Origin: Phoronis australis
Lineage: Eukaryota > Animalia > Phoronida
Length of the DNA: 64,000 nucleotides
Assembly (NCBI GenBank): GCA_002633005.1
Contig: NMRA01000064.1
Coordinates: 124,001-188,000 of the forward strand
Direction: 5' to 3'
Part shown: positions 22,701 to 64,000 of the stretch, piece after piece
Layout of the letters: the number at the start of each line of letters is the position of its first letter
How positions within the stretch are numbered: the stretch's first letter is position 1
Position numbers and translations under genes: made by a program
Notes under the pieces: model-generated
What the model was told of the DNA's origin: nothing
The model's database searches: none
What the model saw: only the letters and a program-made list of their open reading frames with translations

Positions 22701-22934
22701 GCTACGTTCTAATTTATGATTGTGACTCTCCATTTGCGCATTAACCACGGACAACTATTGACTGCATTTCGTAGTTTCGACAATTGGAATTTGTTTGCTG
22801 CAACTTTTTCCGTGTGACTTGCATTCTTGTTTTTAAAGCCTGTGTTAGGTTCTAAACATCTGTTGCCCTGGTTGGGCTACTAAGGGGAAATTTATGAATC
22901 ACTTATCCAATTATAGATAAGTTCAAGCACCTGG

Positions 22935-31500: not shown

Positions 31501-34500
31501 ATTCACCAAGGCTAGTAACGCACAGATACCATACGAAAGCAGAAAGCTTGAAAAATATTTACAAAAGAAGACAGCTGGTAGTGTTCTAGAGTCTCATAAG
31601 AAATGTTCAAGAGAACAAAAATGCTCTAAAGAATCAAAAAAATCTATTAGTTCTTATTTACCAGAGGCTGGAAATGTGGTTACTCAAAGAAAGGATATCA
31701 AGTCTTCGTTATCTCATATGTCGTCTATTAGTAAACCTTGTCCCAGCATTTCATCCACAAAACTGGGAAATAGCAATTCAAAACAGTCAGTAAAGTCTGG
31801 CCACACTCATCAAACTCGAAGGATCTCGATCGTAGAACATGGCGACGTCCGCCATTTGGAAGACATGCACGTGCACAGTGATGAAAATGTGAACCTGAAA
31901 CAACAGAAGAGTCTTGAATTTGTTAATGTCAAACTGCCAACCCAACAACCAGCTGAAAGGTGTACAACAAACTTGTCTAGCAAAGGGTCTACGGAGACGA
32001 GGAAAGAGATAGGAGTCTCTCGAAAATTAGACATCATCTCCAGAAAATCATCATTTTCCAGCAAGTACGTAAAAGGGGATCAATCATTCACGAACCTGCG
32101 ATCACGTCGCGGATTTAGGATGTCGTAAGGGGGGCGGGGGGACCACAATTTTCGAACCAAAGATGTCTGCGTGAACCTAAGAAACAGGCATGCCAGTTTC
32201 ACAATGAATGGATTTTGGAACCACGGAAAACTATCAATATAGAAAAAGCTGTGCTGGGGGTTAGAAACTCATAGACAAATCTCTATTTCGTGTCTGTGAC
32301 GTGTACGATCCCTTTAGATAATTTGTTTTCCACTCAGAGTGCTATCGTGCCATTAGGTTGGTTATTTTGACAATGCAGAAGCAACGGGCACATACCCTTC
32401 GGTATTGCTAACAACTGGATAATGACATATACCTGGATCACAATTCAATTCATAACAGATACCAGTAATGCACGAGAAGTCACCTGTGAACACATTTCGC
32501 TGAATCGTATAAGACTATCGTATACGACAATCAGAATACATGGACTATGGTTCGATTGTTGTATATAAAATCGTACTGTAGTAGTCGTAGGCGGGGCTCC
32601 ATTCTGGTTGCTGTTGCAGTTTGGGTATTTTTCTGGAAAATGGTAGCCATTCATTTATGTGACAAACTAAACTCTAGTGCCATCTCCGTTCACTAGATGG
32701 CCAATTGAGAGCAATGTCCTCATATCCCCAGGGGCAGTCCATATTGACCGTTTTATCGTTCCTCTTTTTATCGTGCCTAGGATGATAAATTGTGTAAACC
32801 ATGCATGATTGCACTGAGGCAACATCTGAATTGGCGAAACGTACTGGCCTGTCTTCCGTCACAGAGCTAACATTTGATGTGATTCACTTGTTACAAAACG
32901 GTTATTGAATTCTATCTCTATTAATCTCTTTTGAAATACTTCACAATCGAAGTCGAGGAATTGATCATAGTCTGATTGAGAGGTCATTTCTTGGCTAATG
33001 AATGACCAGCAATTCGTTTGTATGCGCTGAATATGGTCCCAAGCAAAAATAACCTGTCGTCACTTCATTCCAAGCCTAGAAGTCCCTTCTCATCTTTAAG
33101 AAGGAGCAAATCTAGGAAATCAGCTTTTCAAGTGGTAAAGATCTCAATCAGAAGTGTGCTCAGTGGACGACAAATTCATTGTACTTTGAATACTAAAAGC
33201 TTTCTGTAAACTATATCTAATAGGTATCATTTGGTTCACAAGTCTGATTTGGAAGAACTGTTGAAGGATTCTGTTAAGAAGAGGGATAGTTCAAACAATA
33301 GACCACAACAGAATACAGACGTAGATAAGAAGGCACATTCGAACGATGAACTGCCATGCAGCATGATCATGACTGATGTTCGACTCGTCAACCATTACCG
33401 AGATGATGATGGTGAGGAGTGGTTAGAATTAGTCACTCAAATGTTTACAGACATGATATTACTTGCAGTTAAAAACTGAGACCCTGATTTATACACGAAC
33501 TTTTTACTTGATCAGTTCCGGTGTACATGTATCTTAAGTCACGTCAGACATGGAATCTACTAGCAAATATCAGCTATATGCGGTCGTCTGCTGACGTAAC
33601 ACCTTACTATCATATCTCACAGTTACTATAATTTTAAAAACAATTATTATCCTGAATCCTGTAGCCATTTTTGAGATGCGATTTCCGAAGTAAGACATAT
33701 TTTGTTCCAAGACCAACATGCCAAGAATTGTACGATGATTGAACGCAAGCATTTTTAAGTTTATTTGGAATAACAAAGTTGAGAGAGCGAAGAGAGATGT
33801 ATTCAAACTTATGAGGAATGATGATTTAAAACGTTGAATATAATTCTTTTTAATAAGGCTATAAAAATTTCACGGATAAAAAGACTACTTACCTCTGAAT
33901 CAAAATGGGTGAAATTGTTTGAACTTGAAACAGGGATTGCAAAGTCAAACATAAATTTTGGAAATGATTTTATTAAATATCATACTGAAGCAATCAATCC
34001 TTTTTGGAACGAAGTTCTAAGTAACTGGTCTTTTTTCATAAGTACACAGTCGCATAAAGATGCAAATGATTTACTCTCAACAAGTTTATGGCATAATGAT
34101 GAAATACTAATAGACAGAAAATCTATCTTCTTTAGTAAGTATGCAAGTGGTGGTGTTCTTTTTATTAATGACCTACTTTATGAAAATAACTGGTTTTACT
34201 CATTTACTGAATTTAAAAAGATCTCGAATATATCTACACACTTTTTGGTATATTGTTCTCTGATTGAGTCTATAAGGTCGTTTCTGAGGAGAACACCATT
34301 ACAAATGTAGTTAACTAAGATATATGGACCTATAATATCATTTAATATCAGTAATTTTTTAAACTGCACGTCAATATGTAAAATGATATATGAAATTGTT
34401 TGCCAGAACAAAATTTTGCCTATTGCCCAAAAAAGATTTCAAGAAGAAGGCTATAACTTTCGAAGTGATGACTGGAAAAATTATATTCATTGTCTTTTAA

Positions 34501-42866: not shown

Positions 42867-44949
42867 TTAAATTCTTCCCAGCGCTCTCAACTGGTCGAAT
42901 TTTTCCACTTCCTTGTAAAAAGGAATTAATTTCTCGTCCATGAAACTTGGATAAGAAATTTGGTCTGCATCGTCATTGTTGTTAGGTGGGCATAATGTAT
43001 TTTCTACTTCTGCCAAAACATCATGGCGCCGGATGTTTTTAAGCGCTAACTTTAGATCATCGAGTTTTGCCCTCGTGTGAAATCGTCGCCATTTTGTCAA
43101 GCATTTGCTTGCTTGTACACTTGGTGCATCCCGCACGTGACTCTTGATGTCATCGATGTCTGATTGGACAGTATTTATACCACGCGTTGGGTGGAATGGT
43201 AGACAGAAATAGAGCGGAACCCAGTCGCCTTCGATGTTCTCAGCGATAACTTTACAAGCCAAGTCAAAATCTGTAGTTACTTCTGGAATGAAAAATAAAA
43301 TAAACATAAACACTTGGAGCCAACTCGCAACGGGATATGTCGCAATGTTTAACAAGAAACTTACAAACAACTAACAGAACATTTTGACAATGCAATATAC
43401 CAAATCCATAGCGTTTAATTGGTTTGTAATCATGTTTCGTTGGGGAGCAGCTGAGCTCGTTCTGATATTGCAAAATAAGCGCTATATTGCAGGCGTCACG
43501 ATGCAGAATGTTACCTGTGATCAAATAGCGTTACTGTACCACGTTTAGTTTTGAAAGCTACGTGCCATTTAACTCACCTTCTTTCTGGCTCTCAGCTCCT
43601 TTGCTGATGGGAGTAAGAGTATTGTAGAAGATTTTTCTCACTGTATCGGGACACGTTTTCAATAAATATATACGCTTTGCCATTTCTAAAGTTTCACAAA
43701 GCGTCGCGTATTCTTCTTCAATCTCCAATTTATGTTCTTCCTTGTCGCCAACAATTTTACGCAGATCAAAACTCTTCTCTTCCAATGCTTCCAAGTGCTT
43801 TCGTTTCCCATTACTCCAATCTAGTCTGAGTTGAATTGTATTGAAACGCTTTTGCTTTTGCGGAAGTTCTTCGGCAATTCTCGCGAGATCGTTCGTCAAC
43901 TCCGTGTATGTCTCGTTCCACGCATCTGGATGGTACACTGCTACGTTTCTTTGGAGCTCTGCCAACCTGAACTCTTTAATGCTACTATCTAACTTCATAT
44001 CGCTTAGTTCTGTTGTCAGAATTTCCTGTTCAATCAATAATTCAATCTCTTTTTCTTGCAAGTTCATTAACTCCTTTTCAACCACCCTACTTTCAATTTC
44101 CAGTTGATGCACCTGGTATTGTATCTGATGAGTTTTAGTTTGTATTTCTCTGATGTAGTCAATCTTCTTCAGTTTATCTCTCTCCATGTCCTTGACGTCG
44201 TTCTTCAGAAATGTCTCGTACAACTCATCACTTTTTAACCACTGATTAATGGCATCAATCGCGTCTCTTATATTCTCGCACACTTCGGGGAAAATTAGGA
44301 GAAACAGCAAGTTCTCGGCTTCTGCCTTTATGGCAATGTCCTTGGAGTTAGCACCAAACATTCCAAGGTGAAGTGCACCGTCCTTAAATAACCCAGGAAG
44401 AAGATTTATCGTTTCTAGTATGTGGCTGATGTTCACAATCCAGTTGCGAATGGACTGAAAATAATCGTTGCAGGTACTAAGGGGCGGTTGAACAGCCGGG
44501 TCATAAAATGGAAGGCAGTATTTTTCAAGAAATTTCAAAATCTGACTAATCTCACTTTTTATGGCATCAAATTTTCCAGGAACATAGTCTAACACCTTTC
44601 CGTAGCTTTTTTTCACCTTGAGCAAGCCAAAGTTTGTTTTATTAAACGCGTCTCTTTCGGATAAACGTTTTGTCACGTTTTCAACGTGAGTCGGCGATAC
44701 TATTTGAGAGATCTGTAATGTTTTCATGGCCGATTGTAGTGTGGACACGTTGTTTTTTACTTCTTTAAGTGAACGCCCCTTTTGTTCGTTTCCATAGTAG
44801 GCCTTCTCCAAACCGCGCAGTTTGCTAATGACATTGTTCACGGAACGAGTGAGTGCCTTGCGGACGAATTCCATGGACTTTGGTGGTGAAGCTGCCTTCT
44901 CCAGTGACGTCGCGTCAGGAAACAATGAAACTCTTGCGAAAAGAGCCAT
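42867..44949 (-). CDS. Coiled-coil protein with C-terminal death-domain-like fold, 2 coding exons, about 595 aa
   Basis: Exons 44949-43578 (MALFARVS..., donor g|GTGAGT) and 43282-42867 (acceptor ttccag), phase 1. Long E/K/L heptad region; terminal exon FDLACKVIAENIEGDWVPLY...QASKCLTKWRR..TRAKLDDLKLALKNIRRHDVLAEV matches the death-domain pattern. Confidence 0.8.
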
Positions 44950-46341
44950 TTTTGTTTTAAGTTTACCCAAAACTTTCAAACACCTAAAAAAGAAAAGGTA
45001 GCATAATAATCTGCTAAATGTATCAATTTACACAAGTTATTCAATCAACTCCTTTCGGGAGATAAGATTACACCTGAAGATGAATTGTTGTTTGGTTATT
45101 TTAGTAGTATTAAGATTCGTACTACAAGAACATGTTTTATTATAACTGTACTTATTTTCATTGTCAGGATATAGATTTCAGAAATACGCCACCCAATTTA
45201 CACTACTTCTGCCATTGCTAAAACTAACGATATTGTTACGTAATATCTAATTGTTACAGTTGACCTAATACCACTTTTATTACATTGGTGAAATAACATG
45301 ACTTTCAACTGACAGTGTTCTAAATCGATTCTAATTAAGAGACTCTAGCATACTGCAATAATATGAGGCGCGACTACTGTCTGTGTGTCGGAGCTCTCTG
45401 TGCTACTTAGTATCGTTCCGTACACCCGTGTGTAAACAGTGGACGTAGCAAAACTAAGAAGCACCGTGTGCTGGGTTTACACGAATTAACTCAAAGCCTA
45501 ATGCTCGCATTTGAATAAGTGTCTCTGGTGTATAACTTGGGACCAAAATTTTATAACAGATGGTCCTCCCGGTGTTCTCAGCAAGTTAGAAATGACTACA
45601 ATTTTCATTTTTGTGAATCGAAGAATATGAATTTACTTTTCAGTTAAGTAGTAGCCGGGGCCTGCCGGCTTCATCATGAAGTAAATATTCCATGTCAAAG
45701 CACGTCTTGTCCACTCAGAGATTTCAGCAAGCCTATATATAGTGCAGTGATTAAGGGGTAAGGCAGCCGCTTTTTGATGTTACCTTTACTAAAATTACAG
45801 ATCTTTGGTTATCTGTTTACAATTGCCCTGGCGTGTATTTACTATCCATGGAACAACAGAAAGTGAAGTAAACGGTCCAGAAAACGGCTCACATCTTGAT
45901 TCTGCATTCACTGCTTGACTGAGCCAAATGTCCGACTCACGGAGCGTTTCTGTTATTCGTGACTGCTGAATCATTGGACGCTAATGCTGGCTTTTTGTTG
46001 GGCCGTTTACCGCACTTTCTGGTGTTGCATAGCAAGAAAATAAGGTAACACAAAAAGAATGGCCATGCTTGCACGACCAGGCAAAACCCGTTGAGAACTG
46101 TGTAATGCCTTCTGCAATATTGACCCGAATGACACGCGCTCCTAGCGATCCTAGCTGCGAGAACAAATATACAGTTTGGAACAAACAAGCATTTCCATCG
46201 GGAGGCTGTCCTTCGTTTACTGATAATGACCTATCATAGGCAGGTTAGGTTATTGTTGATTCGCAACGTTACACAAATCTGAATGAAACGTTCTTTATTT
46301 TCAGTGCAGGACGCCTGGTCGAAAATGACGTAAATCAATGC

Positions 46342-46396
46342 ATAAAATTTTACGGTTTTAGCCAGTAACTTACTGGCTAAAACCGTAAAATTTTAT
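46342..46396. repeat. Perfect palindrome, 27-bp arms with 1-nt spacer
   Basis: ataaaattttacggttttagccagtaa-c-ttactggctaaaaccgtaaaattttat. Confidence 0.95.
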
Positions 46397-49300
46397 TTTT
46401 GTTGAACAAAGCATGTCGAGTGGCGATTTCATCAGAAATTTAGGGGGTGCTACGATATACATTTCCCTACTCAGTCTCGAAATTTGGTGGAGATCCGTGC
46501 GGGCTGATTTTTTCAGTTTTTCTGTGAGAGCAGCGTCGGCGATCGAATGGAAACGCTCTCTGTCTACGCTGTGGACTAAACGGGAATATTTCGTAAATAA
46601 CAGTCCTCTATTTTGCGTTTTTACTTTTAATTGTTCCTTGCTTCTTTGTTAGAGAGTGAAACAGGAAGCAACGTACAGAGGATTGCATACTTTTCTTTAA
46701 ACCAAAACTTACTTTCATTTGTCTGCCATTATTACATCCCGCTGTCCGGAATGAAGAGTGGGTATATGCAATAACTTAAATATGACTGTTCTAAATGATT
46801 GCTCTGAATAAATAATGGCGTCTTTTATTTCTGACTGATCACACACTGTGTGTTTGCTCACCAGATAACGAAAGGCTGTCATGACTGCACAAGATGTTAA
46901 GCATGTCTAGCGATAACTATAGGTTTTCGATGTTTTTTTCAGTTCGACAAGGTGTGAAGTTATCATCTCAATAACAGCGTTGTAATACGTACACTTCATG
47001 TGGGCAAACATGTCTAAACAGTTACTTTTTGTTACTGCCAGTATGAATTATTCCTGCATCCCAAATTCCAAATTGCATAGAATGCAACAATTAAGGGATA
47101 CTCTTTAAAACATCGCAGTCAATGTGTACATGCGCCATATTGGAATCTTGCATTTTAGGGTTGGCTAACCCTAATAAATTCTGAAGCATTTTCCCGAGTC
47201 GATGGTTCCGATGTTCGTGTGGGCTTGAGACGGAAATTTAATCCTGTCACGGTAAGGAATCTCACGAGACCGATTTTATGAAACTAAAAGTGCCAATTTA
47301 TTTCGTCTGTACATTAAAACACGTTAACGAGCGGTTCTAGAGCAAACCACGGAGGCGTGGACCAAATAAATACACCAGAATCGACCAAGTCAAGAGAAAC
47401 TGTGAAAAAGTCTACTACATTGCATAATACGTGATTCGACACCTGTAAGCTAAAATTAGAAATGAGACGTCTCGCCTCCATTCTTTACAGCAGGAAGATA
47501 TTTGTGAAGCGCTAAAAGATTCCAGTGCGAGTAGCACAAGATCTGTAGCAAGATTATGACGTGTTCATTTTATGTCTTGCGAACTACAACGGAATATGGA
47601 AGACAAGGGGAATTACAAAATGCCTAACTTTGAACTAAAATAAATGTTTAACACTGTTTTCCTTCTGACAAACATTGGCCATATATGTTTGCTGGAAACA
47701 ACGGAAGAATGTTAATCGTCGTGAGTCAACACATTTTTGGAGAACAGTCGTTTAGACTACAGAGACTCGAAACATTACTGCGTTGTTGAGACCTGTGCTA
47801 GCTAAAAATCTTGTAATAAACAAGTTATAATGTTGAATTTACCCGTGAGTTTTACTAGCTGATTACAATAGTTCGGGTGTCTGTCATAACAATAGGACGA
47901 TTGAATCATCCATAGATACTAAGCTAGCTAAACACACAAGGGTGAACAAACATGTATTCGTGCGAACTCAGTTTTCAAAACACGACTCGACATTCCAGCC
48001 AACTCAGGAAGCAGGGGTAATAGATTTTCTATTGTGCTAAACATCGATAATGTTTTTTTCAAGCACTTGGAAACCGTTTAACATAAAGGCTTGTAGAACG
48101 GATAGGAAATACATTCATGGAAAACGAATACACTATAGGACGTCGTTTTTAACATGGATTTTATTAGAACACCAACAGTTGCTCCGAGTGATTCTTTATC
48201 GTTCAAGACGAATTAGTTTTTTACAGACTTCCAGGAGTCAGTATTTCTGTGATTGAATTCTGATTCAAACTCGAATGAACAAGACTTGTAGTGGTGCTCT
48301 GCTGACTGAGACACTTGGTAATGAGTACCGTTGTTCTATGGTAAATATAACGATTAGGAGCGTATGATTGACACAGGCGTATAATGCCTCGTACCTGGAA
48401 AAGGCAACCCCGTCCATAAATAATTTGCTCAAACCAGTATACAACCACCTCTAAAATAAAAACCACTCAGTTCCAAAACAAGACTAACATCAGTATCCTA
48501 CCTTTAAAATAAAATGATCACATCATCTGAATACGAAAGTGAGAAACAACATGAGCTGGTGGCGTGTAGGGTGAGACACGCTGGCCAGATATCAGTCTAG
48601 GTTCTCTTCAACATTTACGTAGTCTATTAGACAAATGTTTGATTGGCCTTACTTTTTAAAGAGTTAAAAAGCGGTGACAACGGATAGACATCACAGGTGA
48701 CAAACTCACTTGAAATCTATTTTTGTGGTCCAATGACGTTGAGCAGCTAACGAGGGTTTGTCATTTCGAGCTCAACGACATACACCAGCGACGAGGCTTA
48801 CGACAAATAAAGCCGGGAATGGATTTCCAACAAGACTTAGTAAATCTAAATCCCGTTTATGAGAACTTGAAGCTTTATTTTAACATACCTGTCGTCGAAG
48901 TTGATATGTTAGGGATTATCCATCACTTATCCGGGTTAATTCTTGATAACGTATCTTCAGTGTGTTGGCGATGCCATGACAATGTCTCTCCGTGTACACA
49001 GGACTGGCCTCAGTTAATAATACGGCTACTCTATTTACACGGGACCCACGGCGAGCACAGAACCCGAGTATTCTATTTATCATTGATAATAAGCTTTGAG
49101 GAGACGTATCAATACACCTCACAAAAGCTATATTAAATAAACAACACGCCACCTAGTGAGTAAGTTGTGTTGTCAAGGGCAGTTGAATAAACACAATCGT
49201 CGGACAACAAATGCAGGAAAGAATTTCAAATGAAGCGTTAAAAAATCCACACAGTTTTCTACGCTATTTTTGAATTAGGGCAATACGGACAATATTTGGA

Positions 49301-49733
49301 GTGGCACAGAATTAAAGATTAATATTTGCTTTACAGGCAAACATAACCCCAGGTCATATCCACTCGAGAACATTAATCACGTCTCAGACGTATTCTCGCA
49401 TTCAATAACATATGGATATCCGCCGCCTAATGGAACCTTAATGTATAGGTCTTTAGCGAGATAATATCTTGCTAATCGCTTTTAATATAATGCAAAACTG
49501 ACTTTGATTATAAATCCACTTGAAAATTAGTTCACCCATGAAGTTGTTTTTGCAACTCTCTGAATAATGTCAAAAGTTGTGAACAGTCGTGTGTGCTTTT
49601 ATGTACTATTAAAAGGTATACGTGTAATAATCCAGTTGTTCTAATGTTTCTTACGTCATAAATCAGGAATATAAAACACTATTTCACCACTTCATCATCA
49701 ATCATATCGAAATGTGTCACGGTATGACTGACA

Positions 49734-50486
49734 GATCATTTCACAGACACAACACCGTCCTTTAAAGGAACTCAACCAAGTACGTGTACCCTGCTTATTC
49801 CATTTGCAACGGAAATCAGTCGACGACAGTCATTTCTGCGGTCACACTCACCATCACCCTGACCTCCGCCATAATCTTCACCACTACCACCGCCACAATC
49901 ATCACCATCACTATCACCACCACTACGCCACTTCCATCCAACAATACCACCACCATCTGCATCATCATCAGATATCAAATTCATAGCAAACAGAAAAAGA
50001 AAACATGCTACTGTATTATTTTACATGTAAGCATACATGTATGTTTCAGTAAAGTAAACAAAAATTGTTAATTTATTTCTTATTTATTTAAAAATACACC
50101 CAATCAANACATATCATTTCACAGACACAACACCGTCCTGTAAAGGAACTCAACCAAGTACGTGTACCCTGCTTATTCCATTTGCAACGGAAATCAGTCG
50201 ACGACAGTCATTTCTGCGGTCACACTCACCATCACCCTGACCTCCGCCATAATCTTCACCAATACCACCGCCACAATCATCACCATCACTATCACCACCA
50301 CTACGCCACTTCCATCCAACAATACCACCACCATCTGCATCATCATCAGATATCAAATTCATAGCAAACAGAAAAAGAAAACATGCTACTGTATTATTTT
50401 ACATGTAAGCATACATGTATGTTTCACTAAAGTAAACAAAAATTGTTAATTTATTTCTTATTTATTTAAAAATACACCCAATCAAC
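49734..50486. repeat. 378-bp-period near-identical tandem duplication around a single N (probable assembly overlap)
   Basis: 49734-50107 repeats at 50112-50485 with a few substitutions; N at 50108 lies at the junction. Confidence 0.85.
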
Positions 50487-50651
50487 AGAAGAAATTTTTA
50501 ATACAAAAGCGAACCGTAGTTATGAATTCTGAAATCTGAAGACATTTTAATTGAATCTTGATTGCTCGTCATACGCTCCTCAGTAGGTTATAAATACAAC
50601 ATCTAACAAAGACAAGAATGTACAACAGTAATCGCTGACCCTCCTAAGAAG

Positions 50652-53600
50652 TTAAACATCAGGAATGGAACGCTCAAACACAGGACTAAGGGTTTCGCGC
50701 GTTCCCAAAATAAATACACGGCGTTCTTCACCACCGGAATCATCCGACGACTCGCTACACGAATAGTTTACATTCATGTTTTTCTTCATCCATTTCTTTA
50801 CTGCTTTCTTTTCAAAGCCCTCCTTTCGCTTCTGCCACTTTGCTACAACTTCCGCTTTCAATTCCTCTTCTCTCTCTTTTTGTAAAGCTTCCATCTCAGC
50901 CTTAAATTCTCTTGCCACAATCGTCAATATAAAAAACTGCCTATCATCCACGGCTGGAGTGGGTATGTGGTCCACCATTCGCAGACACTGGTCACATAGT
51001 CCCAAAGCCCACGCGTGAAACATCGCGGCTCCCGTGCTTAATCGATTCACTTCCTCTTCCGTGTACCTTAACAAGATCTCAAGAGCGCGTGCTGCGATTT
51101 CCGGATGAAGAAATCTTACGCCAAAGAATTTTATGCGCATCAGCAACCCCGGATAGTCGCCCACGCGTACTGTGCAACAACGGTTCCTACAAACCAGCCA
51201 GTCAGATGTTATGTCTTCCGTGTCTCCAAGAATCAATAGCACAGCCTTCATGACATCGTGAACGCATGTAGGGGGACATTTGTAACTCCTAATCTCTAGC
51301 ATCAAAGATCTGTCCAGCTGAAGAATTTTGACCTTTAATTTTTCTACTCTTTCCATAGATTTGAGAATGGCTCTTGCGTTAGCAATTTCAGTCGGCAGCC
51401 ACTTTTCGCCACCCATTCGTATTAAACGATCAAGAGCAACCTTCAATTTTCCACAATCGTGTCCTTTTATGGCACGGGCTATGGCATTCTTTTCGCGAGT
51501 TAGTGCCAGTACATTGTCAGTTTCCTGCAGCAATGAATTATCTGTAGTACCTATGCTTGCTTTATGTTGATGCACAAAATCAGTGTACTTTTGAAGTGCA
51601 CCCTCTACAGTCCTTTCGTTCAACGTTTCGTGGGCTGACAGCAAATTGTCCCTGAGTATCAACTCTCTTTCTTTTACACAATTACTGAATTGAGTAGGAT
51701 CATTTAATATAGCGTTTGCCTTTTCCACGAGACTTATGTGTTCGTCTGTGTCTGAAAGTGATAAGTTACAAAAATTCATATACTCAGCCAACGCCTCCTT
51801 TATTTTGTCTACGTCAGCACTTTCTACTGCTTTCCGCAGACGTTTTGCGCATTCATCTTTCTTTGCTTTATAAATAAATTCTTTGGCTTTCTTAACCATC
51901 CCATCATCGATTTTCAAATTGCACGCATTCATATACTGTGTATAGGCATTTAAGGCCGCAATGATTTCGTCAGCATTAACACCTCTTCCCATTCTCAATA
52001 ATTTTGCCTGAAGCGCCTCAATGGGATCTTTCTTTTCCCACTGCTTTTGACGTAATGTTTGCAGACAGTCATCCACTAATGCCGTATCCAGTAGGCAAAT
52101 CTTTGGATGCGCTTTGCAATAATCTCGGTAGGCTTGCAATCTCTCTCGTATTAACCTGTCATCACCAGCTTCGTTTACTGAGACTAACAACTGTTTTAAC
52201 TGGTCGCCTTCGGCTTTAATACGGTTTATCTCGGCTTCTTTTTTAAGTATCACGTCTTCGGCGCGAGAAACTAGAATTGAATCTAGATCTAACGCGTCCG
52301 CGTGAGCTTTGTGAAACCTCGTGTATCTGTTAAGCTGTTTTCGAACTTCGTCTATTGTAGAACACAACACAGTTATGGCGCGAACTAGACAGTCGCGTAG
52401 AATCTTGAACTTCTTTTCTTCAGGCGTCATTCGATTTCTAAAGGTTGCTTTGCAGCCAAAGACTTCTATTTTTTCATCATTATTTTTCGAAGTGCTTTCC
52501 TCTGTCTGCTTTTTTATTGAATCCGTCAGTGTACTGTCTTCTTTTCCGGGAATTTGTTTTTGTAATAAAAATGCGCCCTTATCATCGAGTTCAGGACCGT
52601 CTCTCAGTTTAATAGGAGTTCTGTTCAGTTCCCTACCGACAGTTTCAAAATGCTCATATTTGACCTTTTGAGTTGTAGCAGCTCCAATTTTTGGCTGACG
52701 CGTCCTTGTTTTCGTACGAGAGTCTTCTTGTGGTTGTTCTTGGCTGTCATGGCCACCGGTAGTAATTCCATCTAGATGCCGCGTTTTCCCAGAAAGTCTT
52801 GTGTGTCTTTGAATCCAGTCTGAGGCCTTTGTAATCAAACTCTTGTCCTTTTTGAATTCTGGTCTATTTTTGTCTAGGAATAACTCATAACTGCGAAGCG
52901 CAGCTTTCACGTTATCAACGGGTGTTCCATCCTTGTCGACCAGTTCTTGCAGTTTTCCTTTCAGACCCTCGTGCTCCAAAGTTTTAGACAACTTAGATAA
53001 AATATTCCTAGAACAATTTATTAGTTGAAAATCTTCTTTTAGTTCGTGCTGCCGATTCCGCCACAAAGAAACGTCTTTTGCAGCAGCCTTTTGCATCTCC
53101 AGCTTATTGGTTTCCCAGAAATGAATGTATTTTGCCAATGCCTCGGTAATTGCGGTTTTGTTTAAATTTCTGTTAGCATTTTGGAGGCGTACCTTCAACT
53201 CTTCTCCTTCACGTACTTGTTGAGAAAGTTTAGAATCTTTCTCGTTGCCTGTCTGTTTTGCATGCGACATTCTTACTACCTTGCTTGGCTTACCTTCTGT
53301 AGTGCCTTGTTTCACAGATTGCGATTTCAGAGTTACCGCTTTACTGCGTTCTTCTTTTCCACGCGCCTCCACAAACTTGTCTTGAGGCTTGGGAACTTCA
53401 CTCCGTACCTTTGATGGAGCGTTGGTCTTTCCGACTCCCTTCATCTTTGAAAGATCCTTATTAACAGTATTTTGTTTTGACTTAACTTGTTCTTTCTTAC
53501 CTAAAGCAACTCCACCTGTCGGATATACCTTCTTTTCATCTTGTATGGAGGCATCACGTGCATGTTTCTGTAACCACGTACTGACCTTGTTGACAAGACG

Positions 53601-56600
53601 CGTATCTTCTCCAAATTTTTTTTGGTGATTTTCAATAAAGTCTTTATATTTTTTCAAAGCTAATACAACTTCTTCAGGTGGAGTAGTATTACGTTTCGTC
53701 AGTTCTTCAAGGGTTGTCCTCAGCGCTTCATGCTCCACACTTAAATGGGACAATGAGTCTTTTACGTCTTCTCTGCCCGCACGCGACGTTGCATCCTTGG
53801 CAAATAATCCCTTAGTCGTCTTAACTTGTTCGCTGTCACCTTTCATAGTGGGTGATGTCACGGTTGCTGTTTTACGATACCCTTCTTGTCTGCTTGAAAT
53901 CAAATTTATGCCTTTAACATTGGAATCATCATTCCCCTCTTCCACCTTACCTTGGTTTTCACCAACTATTGACTTCGGATATGAATTTCTTTCGTCTTTT
54001 TCGAACGCATCCCGTGTATGCTTCTGTAACCAAATCTTGACCTTGTTAATAAGACATTTGTCTTCTTCAAATTTCTTGTGATGTTTGTCTGTAAACGATT
54101 TATATTTTTGCAAGGCTAATTCAACTTCTTTGGGTGGTGTTGCGTGGTTATTTATCAGCTCTTTAAGGGTTGTACCCAGTACCTCGTGTTCGGCACTTAA
54201 TTGGCACATTGTTCCTTTCATCTCTTCACCTCTTCTCGAACGTAAAGCTGCATTCGTTGACACAAAACCCTTGGTCATCTTGGCTTCAGTATCATCCTTC
54301 ATGGTGGGTGACGTCACATTTGCTCCTTTACTTGAGTCCAAATTTATGTCCCTGATCTGGGGCACAATTTTGCCACCCTTTAACATTTCTGGGTCATCAC
54401 CAGGTTGTTTAAACTTATTTTTTTCCTTTCCATCTGAGGCAGCTGCACCTTTTGGGTATGATTTTCTTTCTTCTTGTTCCAAACTGCCACGTGTATGTTT
54501 CTGTAACCACGCTCTGGCTTTATCAACAAGACATCTGTCTTCTCCAAACTGTTTTTGATTTTTTGCAATGAACAATTTATACTTTTGCAGGGCTAATTCA
54601 ACTTCTTTGGGCGAGAAAGCATCGCTCTTGGTCTGTTCTTCAAGGGTTGTCCTCAATGCCTCATACTCAATACGTAAAGGGGATATTGTTCGATTTCCCT
54701 CGTCGAATCTTATCGCACGCGACGCTGCATTCTTTGTCATTAATCCATTAGTCGACTTAGCTTGCTCACATTCATCTTTCATAATGGTTGATTTCATGGT
54801 TGCTCCTTCACGACAACCGTCTTGTCTACTTGAATACAATTTTTTGTCTTTGAGCAGGGGAACGTCTTTGACAACTTTCACTTTTGCGTGATCCTTGCTA
54901 ACTTGTTTTGACTTCACATATTCTTGTTCACATGCAGCAGCTGCACCTTTCAGATATGATTTTCTTTCGTCTTGCCCCAACGCACCACGTGTGTACTTTT
55001 GTAACCACGCCCTAGCCTTATTAACAAGATGCCTGTCTCCTTCAAAAATTTTCTTGTTTTTTTCAATAAATGACTTATATTTTTGCAGCGCAAATTCAAC
55101 TTCTTTCGGTGGGGTATTATTGCTTTTCACAAGTTCTTCCAAGGTTGTCTTCAGCTCTTCATGATCAGCATTTAAATGAGACAATGTTCCCTTTACGTCT
55201 TGATCTTTTACCACACGCAATGCTGCATCCTTTGCCAGGAATACTTTTGGCGGCTTAACCTGGTCATTACCATCCTTCAGAGTGGGTGATTTCATAGTTA
55301 CTGCTTTACGGTGATCGTCTTTTCTGCTTGAATCCAAATTCCTGTCTTTGGCGTCTTTGCCCGCTTTCCCCTTTCCTTTGTCCTCTCTAACTTGTTTTGA
55401 CTTAGCTTTATCTTTTTCATCTGAAGTAGCTCCAAATTTAGAAAATGATTTTCTTTCGTTTTGCCCGGACATACCACGAGTATGTTTCTGTAACCACGAA
55501 TTGACGTTGTCAACAAGTCGACTGTCTTCTCCAAATTGTGTCCGATGTTTGTCAATAAACAATTTATATTTCTGCAGGTTTGATATAACTTCTTTGGGCG
55601 GAGTAGCATCGCGTTTCATTAGTTCTTCAAGGGTTGTCTTCAATGTCTCGTGCTCCACTCCTAAAACAGACACCCTTTCCTCCGTTTTTTTACCTCTTAA
55701 TGCATTCGAAGGTGCACCTCTTGTCACTAGACCATTAGCTAACTTATTTTTTTCACTGCCATCTTTCACAGTGAGTGATTTTACACTTGCTGTGTTACGG
55801 TGCCCTTCGTGTCTTTTTGAATCCGAATATTTTTCTTTGACCTCGGGAGGTTCTTTGGCTACCTTCATCTTTGTTAAGTGTCCATTAGCTTGTTTAGACT
55901 TTACTTTTTCTTCTTCATTTGAAGCAGCTGCACCTCTCAGATATGACTTTCTTTCGCCTTGTCCTAACGTACCACGTGTATGCTTCTGTAACCACGCCCT
56001 GACCTTGTTAAGAAGAAATCTGTCTTCTTCAAGCTCTTTTTCGTGTTTTTCAATCAACACCATATATTTTTGCAGGGCTTCTTCAACTTCTTTTGGTGAT
56101 GTAGCATCGCTTTTTGTTAACTTTCCTAAAGTTTTCTTGAGTGCCTCATGATCGACAGCTGACTGGGAAACTTTTTCTTTCACCTCCTCTTGTTCCTCAA
56201 TGGCTTGGTGCTCCTCTTTTCTGTTTTCTATCTTAGTTCTGCCTTTGATCGTAGGAGCTTGGGAGCATTTATTCGAATCGTTGTACCACCCTTTGCTTAC
56301 TGTCATCTTTATATAATCCTCGCTAACTTGGTTTGATCTAACCTTTTCTTTTTCCACTGAAGCCGTTGCATCCTCTGGAAATGATTCTCGGTCGTCTTGC
56401 ATCGACGTATCGCTCGAATGTTTGTGTAACCACGCCTTGACCTTTTCAATAAGAAACTTGTGTTCTTCAAACTTCTCCAGGTGCTTTGCAATAAATGTCT
56501 TATACTTTTTCAAAGCTTTTTGTACATCTTGGGGAGGCGTAGCGTCGTCATTCGTCAGTTCCTCAAGGGTCGTCTTCAGTACCTCGTGCTCGAAGGTTGA

Positions 56601-59600
56601 CTGGGACAGTGTTTTGAATAAAAGTCTTTTAGAACGAGCTACAAGAGCAAAGTCTTCCTCAAGTTCGTTTTTATAATCCTCCCACGACATCCCTTGCCTT
56701 GAAGCCGCTTGTTGCATAACTAATTTATTTTTGTCCCTGAAGTTGAGATACTGTGTCAACGCTACAGTTATAGCGGATTCATCTCGTTCGTTGTTTGCCT
56801 TCTCTACCTTCGCCATTAATTCTTTGTTTTGGTCCATTATCTGCTGAACACTGAAATCATCAAAAATCTCATCCATTCGTACATTTTTAGTCTGTGGGTC
56901 ATTTACTTGTAGTAACGACTTCACCTGTCCCTGTGCTAAGCTATGAACAGGGTTTTGAATCCAAGCTGTGACCTTTTCAACCAGATCGGCATCTTCTTTA
57001 AACCCCCCTTTGTGTTTTTGAATGAAGTATTTGTATTTTTGCAGCTGAAATGTAACTTCGTCGACTGATGGTGTGCTATTTTTGATCAAGTCCCGAAGAT
57101 TTAGCTCCAGTGAAAGTTTAGATTTTACTCCAGACAAAAAGTTGTTTGACAGAGCTACTAACCCGGCATCTTCCCTAAGATCGTTGTTTTGAAATGCGCC
57201 TGACGAAGCATCCAACTGATGCAGAGTCGCCTTGTTCTGTTTATAGAAGCTGAGATACTGCTCTAGAGCGTCAGCAATAGAAGCTTCATTTTGTTCCTTA
57301 TTAGCTTTCTCCAGGTTAAGCTTCAGATATTTCCCGTGCTCTATAAGGTGAGCAACATTGGTATCATCGGTTGTACGTTCTGTTTCTTTTTGTAGCGATT
57401 GCGTTTGGTTGTCCTTAACGCAATTAAAGTGATACGGCAAGGTTGATTCACTAACTATTGGGTCACCCACTTCTCTTGAAATAGATGTCATGTCGGGGAC
57501 TGTCGCGTTCTCTTTTAAGTCAGCAACTCTCCAGGGGACTGCTTTATACTCCGCTATTCTAGGTGTAAAGTCGTCACTTTGTTTCCCCCTCTCATCTTGC
57601 CTGGAATCATATTTTGTTTTGGTGACAGTTTGAAGATCAAAATCCCCAATATCAGTTGTTATGTTCAAATCCTCTCTGTAATGAGATGTTATTTCATTGT
57701 CATCTATTTTGTCTAAACATTCTTCACGCTGCTGAGCCAACTCCTCATCTTTTTTGATCGACTTGCCACTTGTGTGCCTGTGAATCCATTGCGTCGCGTG
57801 TTCCATAAGATCGACATCTCCTTCAAACTGATCTTTGTGTTGGGCAATAAACGATTGGTATTTCTTCAAAGCTAGCCTGACCTTTTCAATGGTCGTGTTG
57901 TCATCATCTAGTTCGTTTTGGAGATTCACTTCAAGTGTTAATCTAAGTTTTAACGCTGACAGAAGCCTTTTCGAACGCATCACAAGCTCTGAATCTAGTT
58001 CAAGTTCTTCGTTACAGAATTCACTGCCTTGTTCAGGCTTCCTTTTGGTGAGCTGCCAGAAATTGAGATACTCTAGAAGAGCTATATTGATAGCCAGTTC
58101 ATCTAAATCGCTGTTGGCTTTCATGAGGTTCTTTCTAAGTTGCTTCCTTTGAGCTACCAGTTGGTGAAGTTGAAGATCAGTAAATGGTCGCGTGCTCTCA
58201 TCCAACGGCCACTCGTCCTGCGACAGTTGCAAGCTTGAAGCTATGGTGGCAGAAATTTTTTTATTAATATCTTGGTCACCTGCGCATTTTGTTTCCTTCA
58301 ATTTTTCATGATGCTGTGCACTGCTTATTTCATTGCTGTTTATTGCCTCTGCGTCATTCACATGCAGATAGGGTTCTTGACTGGTCTTAACATCCATGAC
58401 ATCGATTTCCGACCGACTTTTGATATTTGACTTACACGAATCAAGAAGCTCTTCCTCTCTTGCTTCACCATCTTGACCTTTTGTACCTACTTCTGTTTGA
58501 AGCTCGTTTTTGTCACCTTCTGTACCTCCATTCTGGAGACATAATTCAAACTCATTAAGTGATTGTGCAAACGCCCTTTCAGAATGATTTTCAATCCACT
58601 GGGTGACTATTTGTAAAAGCGATTCGTCTTTTATAAACTCTCCTTTGTGTTTCGAAATAAATTTGTTGTATTTCTGCAAAGTCGTCTCCACTTCAGAAAC
58701 AGGGTTGTCGTCGATCTCCACGAGTTCACGTAGCTGTGACTTCAGCAGAGAATGTTGCTTACTGATGGTTGATTCCAATTTATTGAGTATGTCCTTCGTC
58801 ACTTTAATGAGGCTGGCGTCTTCTTCAAAACAATGACGTTGCTCCAGCCAATTGATGCCTTCCTTTACAGCCATATCTTGCATATCCATTTTGTTTTCTT
58901 CCCAGAATTTGCAATACTGTTTCAAAGCATCAGTGATAGCACAACAGTCTAGTTCACCGTTGGCTTTTTCGAGTATCTCCTTCTGATGATTTCCTTGTTC
59001 CATGAGATTTGAAAGTTTGGTCTTGCAGAGAAACGCCCCCGTTTGGTCAAGCAACGTTTGAACATTTCTATGGCTCTCCACGTGCATTTTGTGTTTCTCC
59101 AGACAAGCCTCTATCTTGTCCGCCTGTCTCGAAGAATGTGCCGCCTGCAGTTCCTGGACAAGACCGGCGTTGGTTCTTAAAACAGTTTCCAAAGCAGATT
59201 CTGGCGCTGATGTTACTTTCTCCCTCATTTTACGTTGGTGCATATACCAGACGTATACAAAAGTGCCCCCCAGCAGACACAGGCCGACAGTACCAACAAC
59301 AACCACGGCGATTATGGTCCCCGATTCACTGGCTGTAAAAATTACGAGATATTTTAACTGTAAGTAAAAAAATGTGTCTTATATTTTTATTATGAGCTTC
59401 AAGTAATTAAGCAAAGTTTATTGTTGTAGCCAATGCTCAAGTGGAGTGTTGGATCTAGAGCGGTCCAATCACAACTTTCGAAGGAAAATGTTTGCATGTT
59501 GACGCGGGTGGAGCTCTTTGGTCATGTCTGGAGTGGCCCTAAGTCCGCCTATGACATGCTTGTTACAATGCATCGAGCTGTCGGCTGCAATTGAATACAA

Positions 59601-60158
59601 CTGTGTTTCACGCGCAAAAATAAATTGCGGTTCGACTCACGTTCGGTGAATAAGACGGTACAATTTCAAATTAAAACGATTTTTATGAATAATGATCTTT
59701 GATCCCTATACAAAAAACCAAAAGCCAAGTGTCCTTGCACAAAAAGTTCGTCGAAAATGATCACTGGAAATTTTTAGGACCCCGGAAAAGCCGAGGTCGT
59801 GAGACCACAAGACCGCATTATTTTCTCGATTAAAAATAAATGCGTGTGCTGAAAAATTTAGCTTTTTATGAATTTTCCCATATCTTGGGTAGTTTCCTTT
59901 TCAAACAATTTAAAATCAATACAAGAATTGGACAAAAAACTCGTGCAATAATGACCGTTGTGAAAAAGTTCAGTTCAGTCCAATGCCTTGGCAACTGCCA
60001 AACTTTCACGTTATTTTTTAAACTATAAAAATATAGGACAGTTAATTTTAGTTCATCCCATCTTCGATAAATCCAGTTAATTCTGAATTTTGCGTCTCAC
60101 CTGCTTGTGTTGTTGCTACAGGGGTCGCTGTACCATTCAACGGGCTCTCACCTGCCAT
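50652..60158 (-). CDS. Giant single-pass membrane protein (~2912 aa) with tandem helical repeats and a C-terminal dynein-MTBD-like domain
   Basis: Small exon 60158-60101 (gccATGg; MAGESPLNGTATPVATTQA, donor GTGAGA) splices in phase 1 to an 8.7-kb exon 59332-50652. TM segment IIAVVVVGTVGLCLLGGTFVYVWYM is followed by HQRKMREK. About 23 three-helix repeats; C-terminal LDRSLMLEIRSYKCPPTCVHDVMKAVLLILG...W...EVNRLSTGAAMFHAW. Confidence 0.85.
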
Positions 60159-63100
60159 GGCAACTAAGCAAATAAAAATGAAATCTATTGTCAACTATGT
60201 GCAATAAAGGGTGATAAAGGTACATTACAGGTTTTACAGCCAAAATAATGCATTTTGTAGGTCATTTCTAGATAGTATATATTTCTTAAAGTTATTAACT
60301 TTGGTAAGAGCTTTAAAACAAACAGAATCCATTGCGTATTTCCAATTTTGTTACAAGACGCCAACTCTCGCTGTTATTTGACAGACATTCGCTGTGTTTG
60401 CCATTTTAAAACACGCTTGAAATACTCTACTATTTAAGGCGTGGCATTTCATTCAATGCAGAGTTTTCAGCTGCTACTGAGGTTCTGGTGGGTTTAGATC
60501 GGCAGCACAGAGCACTTAGTATAGATGAAAGACGTTCCATCATATGACCACAGGAGCACTGAGAGTGCACCCCAGTATGCACAGAAATGGATGTCTGCTG
60601 CTGTCTGCATTCTGGGGTGGCCGGGTGCTAAAATTGACCTAGATTAGACATTCAAAGTACCGGCTAAAAGTGATTTAAAATGACCAATCATGCCGCATTC
60701 AGCACTGAATGACCCATGACAGATAAATTGCACTCTAGATAGGGTCCGTCAAGAAGCCAAAAGGACCCCAAAATTGACCTCTGGGATGCCGACCTACTTC
60801 GATTGCGCGCTACTGCTAAATCTTGTGACATTACTTTTGTCACCAAGAATGTTTACTTTTACCTTTTTAGGCATTTACGACACGTTAGGCTAAACAGAAA
60901 TAACGTAACGCAGTTTAACTGCATAAACGGTCACGGTTTCGTTCGTGAATTTCTGTTATATCCATGAATGCAAGAATTTTACTTCGAGCTAAACTATGAC
61001 TTGATGGTATGCACTTCGGAACATGCCCTTATCAAATCCATGACATGTTGAAAGTGTGTTATTTAGAAAATTGTTTTACCTAAAAATGTTCATGGTGTTG
61101 CAGTTCATTTCATGAGTAATTCTTGTCAGAAATGCTGCGGAAAGTCTAATAAGACAGATTCAAAAAGACCTCATTACATAAAAAATTCCAACAATGAAAA
61201 ATAAGAAGACACGCTCAAGTAGCTCTAACTCTTCATACTGGACTTTGGTGGGCACGCCAGAGTGACCTGCCTCCACCCTGGACCCAAAACTGATTTTTGA
61301 GGTGACGCAAATATTTGCCTTTCCGAAATTGTGGTTCACTCTAGCACCCACGGATCTAGGGTTTTGTAAGGCGTGGGGCAACCGTAATTTTTTCAATGTA
61401 ACCCTAAAACTGATGTCGTTTTGGTCGTGTCTTGGAGGTAGATGCCCTTGGACTTAATCCTAGATCCGTCTTGACTTCAAGCAACTGAGATCAGTTCAGG
61501 TTAATTAGAATAATCCATATTTACGCTGAAAACCAGTCATAAAACTGAACATATCTCTACACCATTTACCAAATACAATTAATAATTACGAAAACTCGAA
61601 AAAAGAAAAAATCGAATCGAGAGCAATAAAAACTAACTAGTGCCCCCTTTTAAATAATTCGAAGCTACGTAACTGTTGGATATAATGCACGGAAACCATG
61701 GGTGCCTAACCAGCTTTTGTACTGGGGAGCGAATTTTATTGTACGCTCCAGGAATTCCAAAAATAAGCGCGGGCGCACTTTTGAAAACGCTGGAAAATAC
61801 ATCATCAAACAGATCGCGATAACACCGCCTGGTTGCAAATATGTTTCTGAAGGCGACATAATGTTTAAGCGAAAGAGTAGCTAAAACAGCATGCTAACTT
61901 TATGACTGACTTTGCGTCAACGAAACCTTGTTTTTGGCTGACAATCTCTAAACATTTTTCATTTGCATTCTACAAACCCTGAGAATTATTGGCTCCAAAT
62001 TTTATGCCGTAGCTTACGCTTATAAATTTACCCAAACAGAGGGCCATGGGGGCTGTTTGTGGAAATTCACGGTATAATTAGATCCACTGGCACTTGAGGT
62101 TATCTGTTCCTCAATCACCACTGACATCACTCACAACTAATAAAACAAAAAGGTTGGACACTAAAAATCGGTTTGCTTAGAATTTTTTACTCAAATGTTT
62201 ATCGAACAAATCCAGTCTTTGAACACCTTCTTTCACTTGATTACATCAAATTGCCTTGAAGTGGTGATTTGACGACAACAATGTCAAAACATCACTAATT
62301 CAAGGAGGCTATTTTGTGACCTTCATGGCAGACGCCCTTCGCCCACATCGGATTTTTCATAGATGTCCCCGAAGCAATTCCAGGGCTTCGTTTTCGCGCG
62401 CCCACGAATGTTATTTGAGTGCCCTCCACATAATCTAGTTAGTGTCAGTTTGAATGGTTTTGTAAAATAACGTTGTCTATAACCGAAGAACCATGGGTTG
62501 CTGCCTACTAACTTACTGCGAAATCCGGCAGTTGCCGATAGATGATTTCCTGCGACTAAACGTGCCGTCGGACATTGGAAATCTCACGCCAACAGCCGAT
62601 TGTTTGTTGTGCTTCAACCAAGAGTAGCACATAATGTCAAGATCAAACACAAGATACGCCACTTCTTGTAATTAAATTCTAGCTTAGGTGATGAAATGAG
62701 CTATAAGACATAAGTGAAAGGCTAAGTAACCTCAATCATTTAAATTGGGAACAAATGTCTTGATTTTGACGTAGGGGTGGCTTGCTCTATATCGAAATTT
62801 TTTCTTCGACACGGTACAAGTTAAAGCACAACTAAAATCCGCCACGTTAAAACTATTTAGTCTCCTTGAGTTCAGTTTTCTGTTTATGGAAATTCCGTCA
62901 CCAGTTCACTACTCACAAGGACAATTTAATGGAATCGGGGGCAGATAAGGCTTCGGAGGTTTGTGTAATACCAGACAGAGGGAAGGAAGTGCACTCAGAT
63001 TTCTTTTGGATTTGGGACAGTTGAGGCTGGGAGCCTATGCTATGCAAAGTTTTAGTGTCCAAATTTTATGTTTCTTATGTGGTTTTGAGTCATTGGGATA

Positions 63101-63866
63101 TTCGTCTGCCTGTGTAAACCTTTGACACTCTCCGACATTCGTCATCAAATCTCTCTCCCTGACGGTCGCCAATTAGTCCAATCCTCACTTGTCATCCATT
63201 AATCCCTGGTTCAGTAAATAAACAGTGTAAGGACATTCATAAAACATCGTTTACATACCAATCCATGCAGTGAGAAGTTCCAAAAACTTATTTCCATATC
63301 CAAATAATGGTTCAAAAATGTTATTATACACGTGTGCATTGTAAGTTTGACGCGCGTCTTCGACATTTTTGTCGCGTGATCAAGTAAAAGCGAAGTCTGG
63401 CGCACATTATACAGAAGCCCTGATGATATAAATCTTTCCATGTCGCCAACCAAGAGAAGGGCTTCATGAAAACTAAAATGCAGTAAGGTTTCATCATCAT
63501 CATCATCACCACCACCACCATCACCATGACCATCATCATACGATCATCATCATCATAATCACGGCATGCAGAAAAAGAAAGAACGTCACTTTTATTTTAC
63601 ATGGTCATATAAAACAAACAAACAAACAATGTGCAAATCGATATGTTAATTATTTCTGGTCAATTAAAACATACCCAATCAACAGAAGACATCTTTAATA
63701 CAAAAGCGAACCGTTGCCTTGAATTCTATAATCTTGAGACATTTTAATTGAATCTTGATTACTCGTCATGCGCTCCTCAGCAGATTATAAGAACAACATC
63801 TAACAAAAACAAGAATGTACAACAGTAATCGCTGACGCTCCTGGGACCAACCTTTTGTCAGTAGCT

Positions 63867-64000
63867 CTAGCCAAGAAGTTGATCATCAGGTATGAAACGT
63901 TCAAATACAGTATTAAGGGTCACGCGCGTTCCCAAAATAAATAAATTGCGTTCTTCACCACCGGAATCATCCGACGACTCGCTACACGAATAGTTTGCAT
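63867..64000 (-). CDS. C-terminus of a tandem paralog of the giant membrane protein (partial; continues right of the window)
   Basis: ANYSCSESSDDSGGEERNLFILGTRVTLNTVFERFIPDDQLLG* versus VNYSCSESSDDSGGEERRVFILGTRETLSPVFERSIPDV*. The downstream non-coding region 63565-63840 also aligns with 50365-50645. Confidence 0.85.
   Translation of the reverse strand, partial: ANYSCSESSDDSGGEERNLFILGTRVTLNTVFERFIPDDQLLG

Follow-up and report, generated by a model that had tools for sequence, protein, structure and literature searches.

The microtubule-binding domain (MTBD) of dynein heavy chains is usually treated in studies as a switch under the control of the motor ring. Linkers between membranes and microtubules are represented by CLIMP-63, p180/RRBP1 and kinectin, each with a single membrane helix and a part in the cytoplasm that is related to microtubules. 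Here we describe a gene located on the minus strand of a 64,000-nucleotide stretch of the genome of the phoronid Phoronis australis (contig NMRA01000064.1, positions 124,001 to 188,000; this whole stretch is referred to as the window, and all coordinates are counted from its first nucleotide). The protein it encodes is neither a dynein nor a KY protein: it is a giant membrane-anchored member of a family of motor-less MTBD-fold proteins, which seems to be undescribed. It may act as a flexible membrane-microtubule tether via a motor-less copy of the dynein MTBD, a reading to which we assign a probability of roughly 0.45.

The C-terminal domain

Comparison of the last 382 amino acids (aa) with solved structures yielded only dyneins (all 8 matches listed), the best of which was the stalk tip of DNAH10 (E 0.002). 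A family profile built from 58 sequences matched the yeast dynein MTBD at E 1.2e-11. The domain was modelled with a mean predicted local distance difference test score (pLDDT) of 84.6, and dynein entries appeared in the top 15 Foldseek matches listed. The model could be superimposed on the mouse MTBD (3ERR) with a Z-score of 17.4 and a root-mean-square deviation (rmsd) of 2.6 Å over 140 residues; the mouse MTBD also ranked first (Z 17.9) among 48,161 representative chains. The domain is flanked by long helices, and comparison of the predicted model with whole dynein stalks gave an rmsd of 22 Å. The profile and model values bear out the MTBD match proposed in a preliminary description made from the nucleotide sequence, and the extent given there for the domain was exact. 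We firmly assign the C-terminal domain to the homologues of the dynein MTBD, with a predicted MTBD fold (helices H1-H6 between CC1 and CC2). A Pfam scan of the 2,908-aa frame gave no match that passed the cut-off, whether to AAA+, transglutaminase or any other family (best E 0.035, below cut-off), in agreement with the earlier statement that no AAA+ or transglutaminase domain is present.

A family of motor-less MTBD-fold proteins

An exhaustive search with the domain identified 345 protein clusters at E <= 0.001, the best 150 of which were listed; the 75 proteins of at least 330 aa among these 150 are termed long relatives below. The best full-length single-domain match had an E-value of 3e-28. 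Over its full length, the domain is 25-39% identical to its nearest relatives, and the two best single-domain matches, from the annelid Ridgeia, share 35-39% identity with it. Within the family, the domain is situated at most 60 residues from the C-terminus in 88 of 107 cases. The window protein has it near the C-terminus as well, preceded by the helical unit found in its relatives, and keeps all six invariant or near-invariant residues of the family (Glu, Pro, Gly, Trp, Ser and Phe).

The link to KY-type proteins made in the preliminary description was substantiated, since 38 of the 75 long relatives contain the Pfam domain Ig-like_KY (PF23265), most of them together with a transglutaminase-like core. 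The other long relatives carry CLCA/VWA, CD20-like, EGF, LRR, SH3, CARD or CFAP97 domains, and no AAA family was found in the 75 among the matches listed. A transmembrane helix was predicted in 11 long relatives, none of which is of the KY type; P0098 was left out of the 12 proteins with a hydrophobic helix because its weak helix lies within the transglutaminase core. An additional 24 have an N-terminal lipidation motif of the MG..S type (a pattern match only), which brings the number with a predicted membrane anchor to 35 of 75. Fourteen of 20 relatives checked could be named. They originate from annelids, a brachiopod, molluscs, a flatworm, a rotifer, a sponge, amphioxus, a hemichordate and a tunicate, and are labelled as hypothetical or uncharacterized, or take their name from the other domain present. 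A literature search that covered sources other than subscription papers turned up no publication describing an MTBD-like domain in proteins of the KY type or in membrane proteins.

The preliminary description had treated the architecture of the window protein as unrecognised. This has to be revised, since the same design, comprising a predicted membrane anchor, helical repeats and an MTBD-like domain, recurs among unnamed relatives (P0025, P0076, P0021 and P0087). P0025 (588 aa) is laid out like the window protein, with one helix and no signal peptide. The specialty of the window protein is therefore its size, its repeat type and its single giant exon. Searches that were weakly suited to the purpose yielded no relative resembling it in repeat type or size. 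Word-index searches for homologues gave 0 of 5,388, 0 of 3,199 and 1 of 7,990 candidates; these searches missed known relatives and therefore say little on orthologues of the giant form. The single candidate (P0171) is a helical-repeat protein with no MTBD-like motif by eye and no Pfam match. In the Atlas, the C-terminal part gave weak matches to three unnamed, mainly molluscan clusters (0.87-0.90) and to one cluster (0.77) with PF12777 on 54% of its members; the N-terminal repeats gave no match.

We also observed varied fusions of the domain (in P0087, P0106, P0021, P0024, P0145, P0129 and P0054). In amphioxus and a hemichordate it is placed behind CLCA-like, CD20-like and EGF membrane proteins, while in unnamed records five copies follow a CFAP97 domain and one follows LRRs. 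Four further relatives (P0018, P0036, P0037 and P0049), ranging from sponge to gastropod, have an N-terminus that is EF-hand-like by eye, with no Pfam match. It is possible that this subgroup is calcium-regulated.

Transcription and gene structure

The minus strand contains an open frame of 2,908 codons, stop to stop (50652-59378). As RNA evidence we used raw reads from runs with a matching species label (coded X1, X2 and X3), approximately one-fifth of each run being read. Run X4, a small contig set, had no coverage of the gene and was uninformative. Reads of X1 and X2 cover all bins of the 8.7-kb exon (mean depth 2-25) with no internal joint. They are one-stranded with the first mate on the plus strand, the pattern expected of a stranded library for a minus-strand transcript. 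The intron between 60101 and 59332 has GT..AG borders, is in phase, and is spanned by 9 reads of X1 and 3 reads of X2. The gene is thus real and expressed; both the splice junction and the transcript over the giant exon, as previously proposed, were confirmed in two of the three raw-read runs. No X3 reads map to the gene, though the same run gives 4 reads over a junction of the next gene; expression is therefore limited to some samples. The gene located downstream has a different expression pattern. At the 3' side, read depth drops in bin 50076-50739 and no reads remain in 49412-50075, which places the transcript end near 50450.

The 63-nt exon is not the first one, as 4 reads of X1 and 2 reads of X2 splice 60163 onto 63259, which adds a further 5' exon that the preliminary description did not include. 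This exon has an in-frame stop at 63382, followed by no in-frame ATG, and no acceptor-like site; the reads show neither an onward joint nor a loose end beyond it. The 5' exon is most likely untranslated, and the proposed start codon (ATG 60158) stands, giving a joined coding sequence of 2,912 aa (approximately 330 kDa). A signal peptide encoded in the upstream exon was ruled out, as there is no in-frame ATG there.

These data bear on the idea that coding exons beyond the window supply a longer N-terminus, in which case the product would be a type I receptor with a giant tail. The phase symmetry of the 63-nt exon, the presence of an upstream exon, the fraction of each run that was read, and the large ectodomains of the relatives P0087 and P0145 would be compatible with this. 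The structure of the upstream exon and the strong context of ATG 60158 argue the other way, and we consider a longer N-terminus highly improbable.

Several observations concern transcript variation. Five of the nine X1 junction reads contain three extra bases at the 59332/60101 joint; this divergent transcript differs at several positions of exon 2 (60118-60153), with the ATG and the frame kept. No 3-nt microexon matching the extra bases was found in the intron, and the transcript may represent either an allele or a paralogue. Near the end of the domain (50782-51012) the read depth doubles and approximately two-thirds of the reads carry linked differences, from a second haplotype or a paralogue. 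Twelve differences were listed for the coding exon; 5 of them are silent, and the others are mostly conservative. Moreover, two out-of-frame ATGs within the 5' exon (63260-63300, minus strand) would open short upstream frames overlapping the main start, which may possibly exert translational control.

Predicted membrane anchor and repeat region

The hydropathy scan revealed a sole hydrophobic segment, with a peak of 2.39 (elsewhere the value never exceeds 1.4). The 25 residues preceding it are Thr/Ala-rich and contain two Glu, no Lys or Arg, and an NGT sequon (60137-60129), while the 15 residues following it contain four K/R and two D/E. The short N-terminus with its sequon and the single helix followed by basic residues were therefore described correctly in the preliminary account. 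According to the positive-inside rule, a basic flank stays cytoplasmic; the acidic N-terminal flank and the basic residues past the helix thus predict a type III topology (N-out/C-in) with a short exoplasmic N-terminus, as had been put forward. Hydropathy, charge and the analysis of the 5' exon all fit a type III single-pass protein.

The repeat profile detected 21 clear repeats of approximately 58 aa (the profile was built from these 21 units themselves, hence its E-values are not independent). With one unit of the family type directly before the domain and a weak one near the membrane, the total is approximately 23, as counted earlier. The description of the middle part as built wholly of repeats did not hold, as the 21 units account for 1,222 of its 2,578 residues, i.e. 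less than half. FoldIndex values were negative (predicted disorder) for ten linkers of 86-143 residues, which sum to 1,120 residues, or approximately 400 nm when fully stretched (by arithmetic). In a model of two units, the three-helix beads had pLDDT values of 80-90 and the linker 32-42, with a predicted template modelling score (pTM) of 0.31. Because the long linkers are predicted to be disordered and the repeats form less than half of the middle, this part of the protein is predicted to resemble beads on a string rather than a rod, and the long helical linker suggested previously is replaced by a largely flexible one.

The repeat gave no significant match to solved structures (best E 0.42). 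The profile of the segments located upstream of the domain in relatives matches the unit directly before the domain at E 4e-6 (model helix H136-160). The descent of the repeats from these pre-domain units is only suggested: the profile-profile comparison gave E 0.008 with a probability of 5% (reversed control E 0.25), and the repeat matched 4 of 150 relatives at E < 0.05 (reversed control 0).

The seven central blocks, each comprised of a repeat and a linker, are mutually 37-53% identical (pairwise). Such expanded and diverged tandem blocks, together with the distance of the domain from its nearest relatives, would suit a protein in which the domain is a passenger from a donor gene and the repetitive chain itself serves one cell type as a spacer, cortical gel or elastic element. 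We regard this as very unlikely, since the domain keeps its core and all six conserved residues and is modelled at high confidence.

Tubulin-contact residues and possible function

In the part of the study of Nishida et al. (PMC7042235) used here, six salt bridges between yeast dynein and tubulin are described: K3117, E3122 and R3124 in H1, R3152 and R3159 in H3, and R3201 in H6. The H3 positions are tied there to high-affinity binding, and in Dictyostelium dynein mid-H3 residues are used instead. We located the corresponding positions by counting along the yeast sequence in the family-profile match (P0002 numbering). Four of the six residues align, K3117 with R164, E3122 with E169, R3124 with R171 and R3201 with R253 of P0002. 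The best-conserved charged columns in 57 relatives are those of E3122 (D/E in 56) and R3124 (K/R in 49); in a larger set the values were 153/157 and 133/157, respectively.

A motor-less MTBD fold also has structural precedent, as judged from comparison of the model with solved complexes. The fold was detected in (i) chain C of 7JTK, a Chlamydomonas radial spoke (Z 11.7), (ii) chain I of 7JRJ, an entry limited to the head and neck of the Chlamydomonas radial spoke (Z 7.2), (iii) chain Xl of 9FQR, a bovine sperm doublet (Z 10.8), (iv) chain 2e of 9E5C, a Trypanosoma brucei doublet (Z 8.6), and (v) chain L of 9YA2, the Toxoplasma intraconoidal microtubule (Z 9.9); Z values of 7.2-11.7 are moderate for helical folds. 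The last of these belongs to an 8-nm-repeat microtubule structure, which favours the tether. We presume that RSP2 corresponds to the spoke chains and EFCAB5 to the sperm chain. The portion of Leung et al. (PMC11779644) consulted places EFCAB5 in the stalk of radial spoke 3 (RS3) and mentions no MTBD-like domain, and the parts consulted of PMC10994176, PMC12399478, PMC13406575 and bioRxiv 2025.05.19.654877 likewise contain no mention of an MTBD-like fold. The "MTBD-like" motif of TTLL11, as presented in PMC12366701, is unrelated to dynein.

Several results weigh against the tether. The domain is just 11-24% identical to dyneins. R3152 is replaced by Leu and R3159 falls in a three-residue insertion, with Arg nearby at 205, 207 and 212. 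Among 116 relatives, the R3201 position carries an acidic residue in 53 and a basic one in 16, while at the K3117 position just 35 of 157 relatives have a basic residue. Three basic positions that many members of the family share (216, 220 and 221) are missing from the window protein, and the charges of its domain almost balance (15 K/R vs 14 D/E). The fold occurs in radial-spoke chains, where contact with the doublet is not required, and the topology is a prediction from hydropathy and charge. As the H3 positions are unmatched and H3 is tied to high affinity, weak binding is the likelier outcome, if there is any. We estimate an even chance that the domain binds microtubules.

The same observations could indicate a membrane-anchored scaffold, in which the MTBD fold has been re-used for a protein other than tubulin and the repeats serve as docking sites. 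The occurrence in radial spokes, the displaced H3 contacts and the neutrality of the domain fit such a role, as does the family's own basic patch after H3 (columns 213-222), which corresponds to none of the six yeast contacts. The modules to which the domain is fused are, in addition, highly diverse (KY/transglutaminase-like, CLCA, CD20-like, EGF, LRR and CARD). It is at odds with a scaffold that the two best-conserved charged positions of the family are precisely tubulin-contact positions of dynein, and that one structural relative lies within a microtubule 8-nm-repeat map. We consider this the main alternative, possible but somewhat less likely than the tether.

If the protein is a tether, one helix would hold the 2,912-residue chain in the membrane, with the short glycosylated N-terminus outside and the rest in the cytoplasm. 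The beads-on-string middle could span up to approximately 400 nm through its ten long linkers at full stretch. The domain would bind the intradimer site of tubulin like dynein, via H1 and H6, with no ATP control and probably weakly, and many copies in one membrane might retain a microtubule through avidity and still leave it some slack. The evidence from the fold and the contacts would apply equally to a brake or competitor, which, instead of bearing load, slows or excludes motors at the dynein site or parks an organelle; the long flexible middle suits a search of a volume over a fixed distance. A weak single-domain binder is, however, a poor competitor, which makes this role unlikely.

In a broader, still tentative interpretation, invertebrates possess a large family of passive microtubule anchors derived from the dynein stalk tip and repeatedly fused to lipid or helix membrane anchors. 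The window protein would be its extreme: a 330-kDa leash that uses the motor's own site and reaches over hundreds of nanometres. A family which keeps tubulin-contact residues and has no ring offers natural fixed-state versions for probing binding strength. If the domain binds, these proteins would constitute an unrecognised animal class of membrane-microtubule linkers, and hundreds of invertebrate proteins labelled "uncharacterized" or "KY-like" would gain a testable function.

Origin of the gene

An unrooted FastTree phylogeny of 108 near-complete domains placed that of the window protein in a 15-member group (support 0.89) in which most of the long proteins are of the KY type. The transmembrane relatives are located elsewhere in the tree and are not sister to the window's domain; they therefore probably represent separate fusions. 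Of the 150 domain matches, 41 stop mid-domain, and Val is found at one fixed position in 35 of 40 placeable shortened relatives vs 3 of the 98 that are full-length. All codons for Val start with GT. The shortened relatives thus look like gene calls limited by an exon that ends at a conserved intron of phase 0. In the window gene, the frame continues across the corresponding place (51203) with no joint in the RNA reads. This points to a conserved family intron that is missing from the window gene, and copying from mRNA or intron loss would explain both its absence and the 8.7-kb exon. We infer that a KY-type gene donated its 3' end, probably by way of an mRNA copy, and that this piece was set behind a membrane-anchor exon and then grew by tandem duplication.

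Features of the gene and neighbouring sequences

The features of the gene are summarized in Table 1.

Table 1. Coordinates of the features assigned to the gene and its product within the window.
Feature	Position	Strand	Basis
5' exon, apparently non-coding; 5' end unmapped (reads extend ~62 bases in)	63259..63320	-	Junction reads; stop/ATG scan
Exon 2, 63 nt; ATG 60158 in GCC-ATG-G context	60101..60163	-	Sequence; spliced on both sides
Exon 3, coding part, 8,681 nt, no intron	50652..59332	-	Open frame; X1/X2 coverage on one strand
Single predicted transmembrane helix, basic residues after it	59244..59315	-	Hydropathy scan; flank charges
21 predicted three-helix repeats of ~58 aa, with short joints or 86-143-aa disordered linkers	51495..58997	-	Profile; FoldIndex; model
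Seven tandem blocks of 146-166 aa (repeat + linker), internal expansion	53286..56600	-	Pairwise identities; alignment
Helical unit as found before the domain family-wide; last helix predicted to run into CC1-equivalent helix	51342..51491	-	Profile; model
Domain of predicted dynein MTBD fold, 117 aa; AAA+ ring absent, no long stalk in the model	50988..51338	-	Profiles; model; structure comparison
C-terminal tail: predicted long helix, basic patch (net +7 in 25 aa), disordered end, stop	50652..50987	-	Model; charge scan
Probable 3' untranslated region; four polyadenylation-type hexamers at 50551-50455	50455..50651	-	Sequence; fall in read depth

Directly past the 3' end of the gene lies an exact-length tandem duplication of 378 bp (49731-50489, 98% match). 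The downstream gene (42867-48887, minus strand) has a junction 48887/44981, spanned by 3 reads of X2 and 4 reads of X3; it contains a 489-aa frame whose composition resembles that of a coiled coil, and another frame that weakly matches the Death domain (E 4.5e-4, below cut-off). On the other side, stranded transcription at 63650-64000 (minus strand; depth 7-17 in X1) stops near an AATAAA at approximately 63595 and probably represents the 3' untranslated region of an upstream gene, located approximately 300 bases from the first exon of the gene described here. Three long low-complexity exons of other genes (14533-16101, 22917-24050 and 31217-32128, plus strand) have no Pfam matches.

Comparison with known systems

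The dynein heavy chain MTBD (the core of PF12777, MT; structures 3ERR, 6RZB and 6KIO/6KJN/6KJO; DNAH10 and DNAH6) has in common with the window domain the predicted fold, the profile homology and four of six contact positions. The window protein differs from dynein heavy chains in that it has a predicted membrane anchor, lacks the AAA+ ring, linker and tail, has no long antiparallel stalk in the model, and has its H3 contacts shifted or lost; its domain is below detection by Pfam MT. The axonemal and conoid chains listed above are non-dynein-sized, with an MTBD-like fold that is apparently motor-less, and are parts of microtubule-associated complexes. They show 7-16% identity and are not among the 60 sequence-profile matches listed. 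The resemblance to CLIMP-63, p180/RRBP1 and kinectin is one of functional analogy only; these proteins are not known to use a dynein-derived domain, and homology was neither expected nor seen.

The KY-type proteins with a C-terminal MTBD-like domain (Lingula XP_013404632.1, Sinanodonta KAL3861103.1 and Helobdella ESO03382.1) share the helical unit and the domain (33-37% identity) with the window protein, and form the clade nearest to its domain in the tree. In contrast to them, the window protein contains neither a transglutaminase-like domain (PF01841) nor Ig-like_KY, has a predicted transmembrane helix in place of the lipidation motif and a repeat type of its own, and its domain is uninterrupted by an intron.

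The transmembrane relatives, i.e. P0025, P0076, the amphioxus proteins XP_066272931.1 (CD20-like) and XP_078700756.1 (CLCA-like), Saccoglossus XP_077867321.1 and rotifer CAF0857834.1, have no described function in the literature searched. They share with the window protein the predicted anchor, the helical units and the C-terminal domain, and differ from it in being two to eight times shorter and in the sequence of their repeats.

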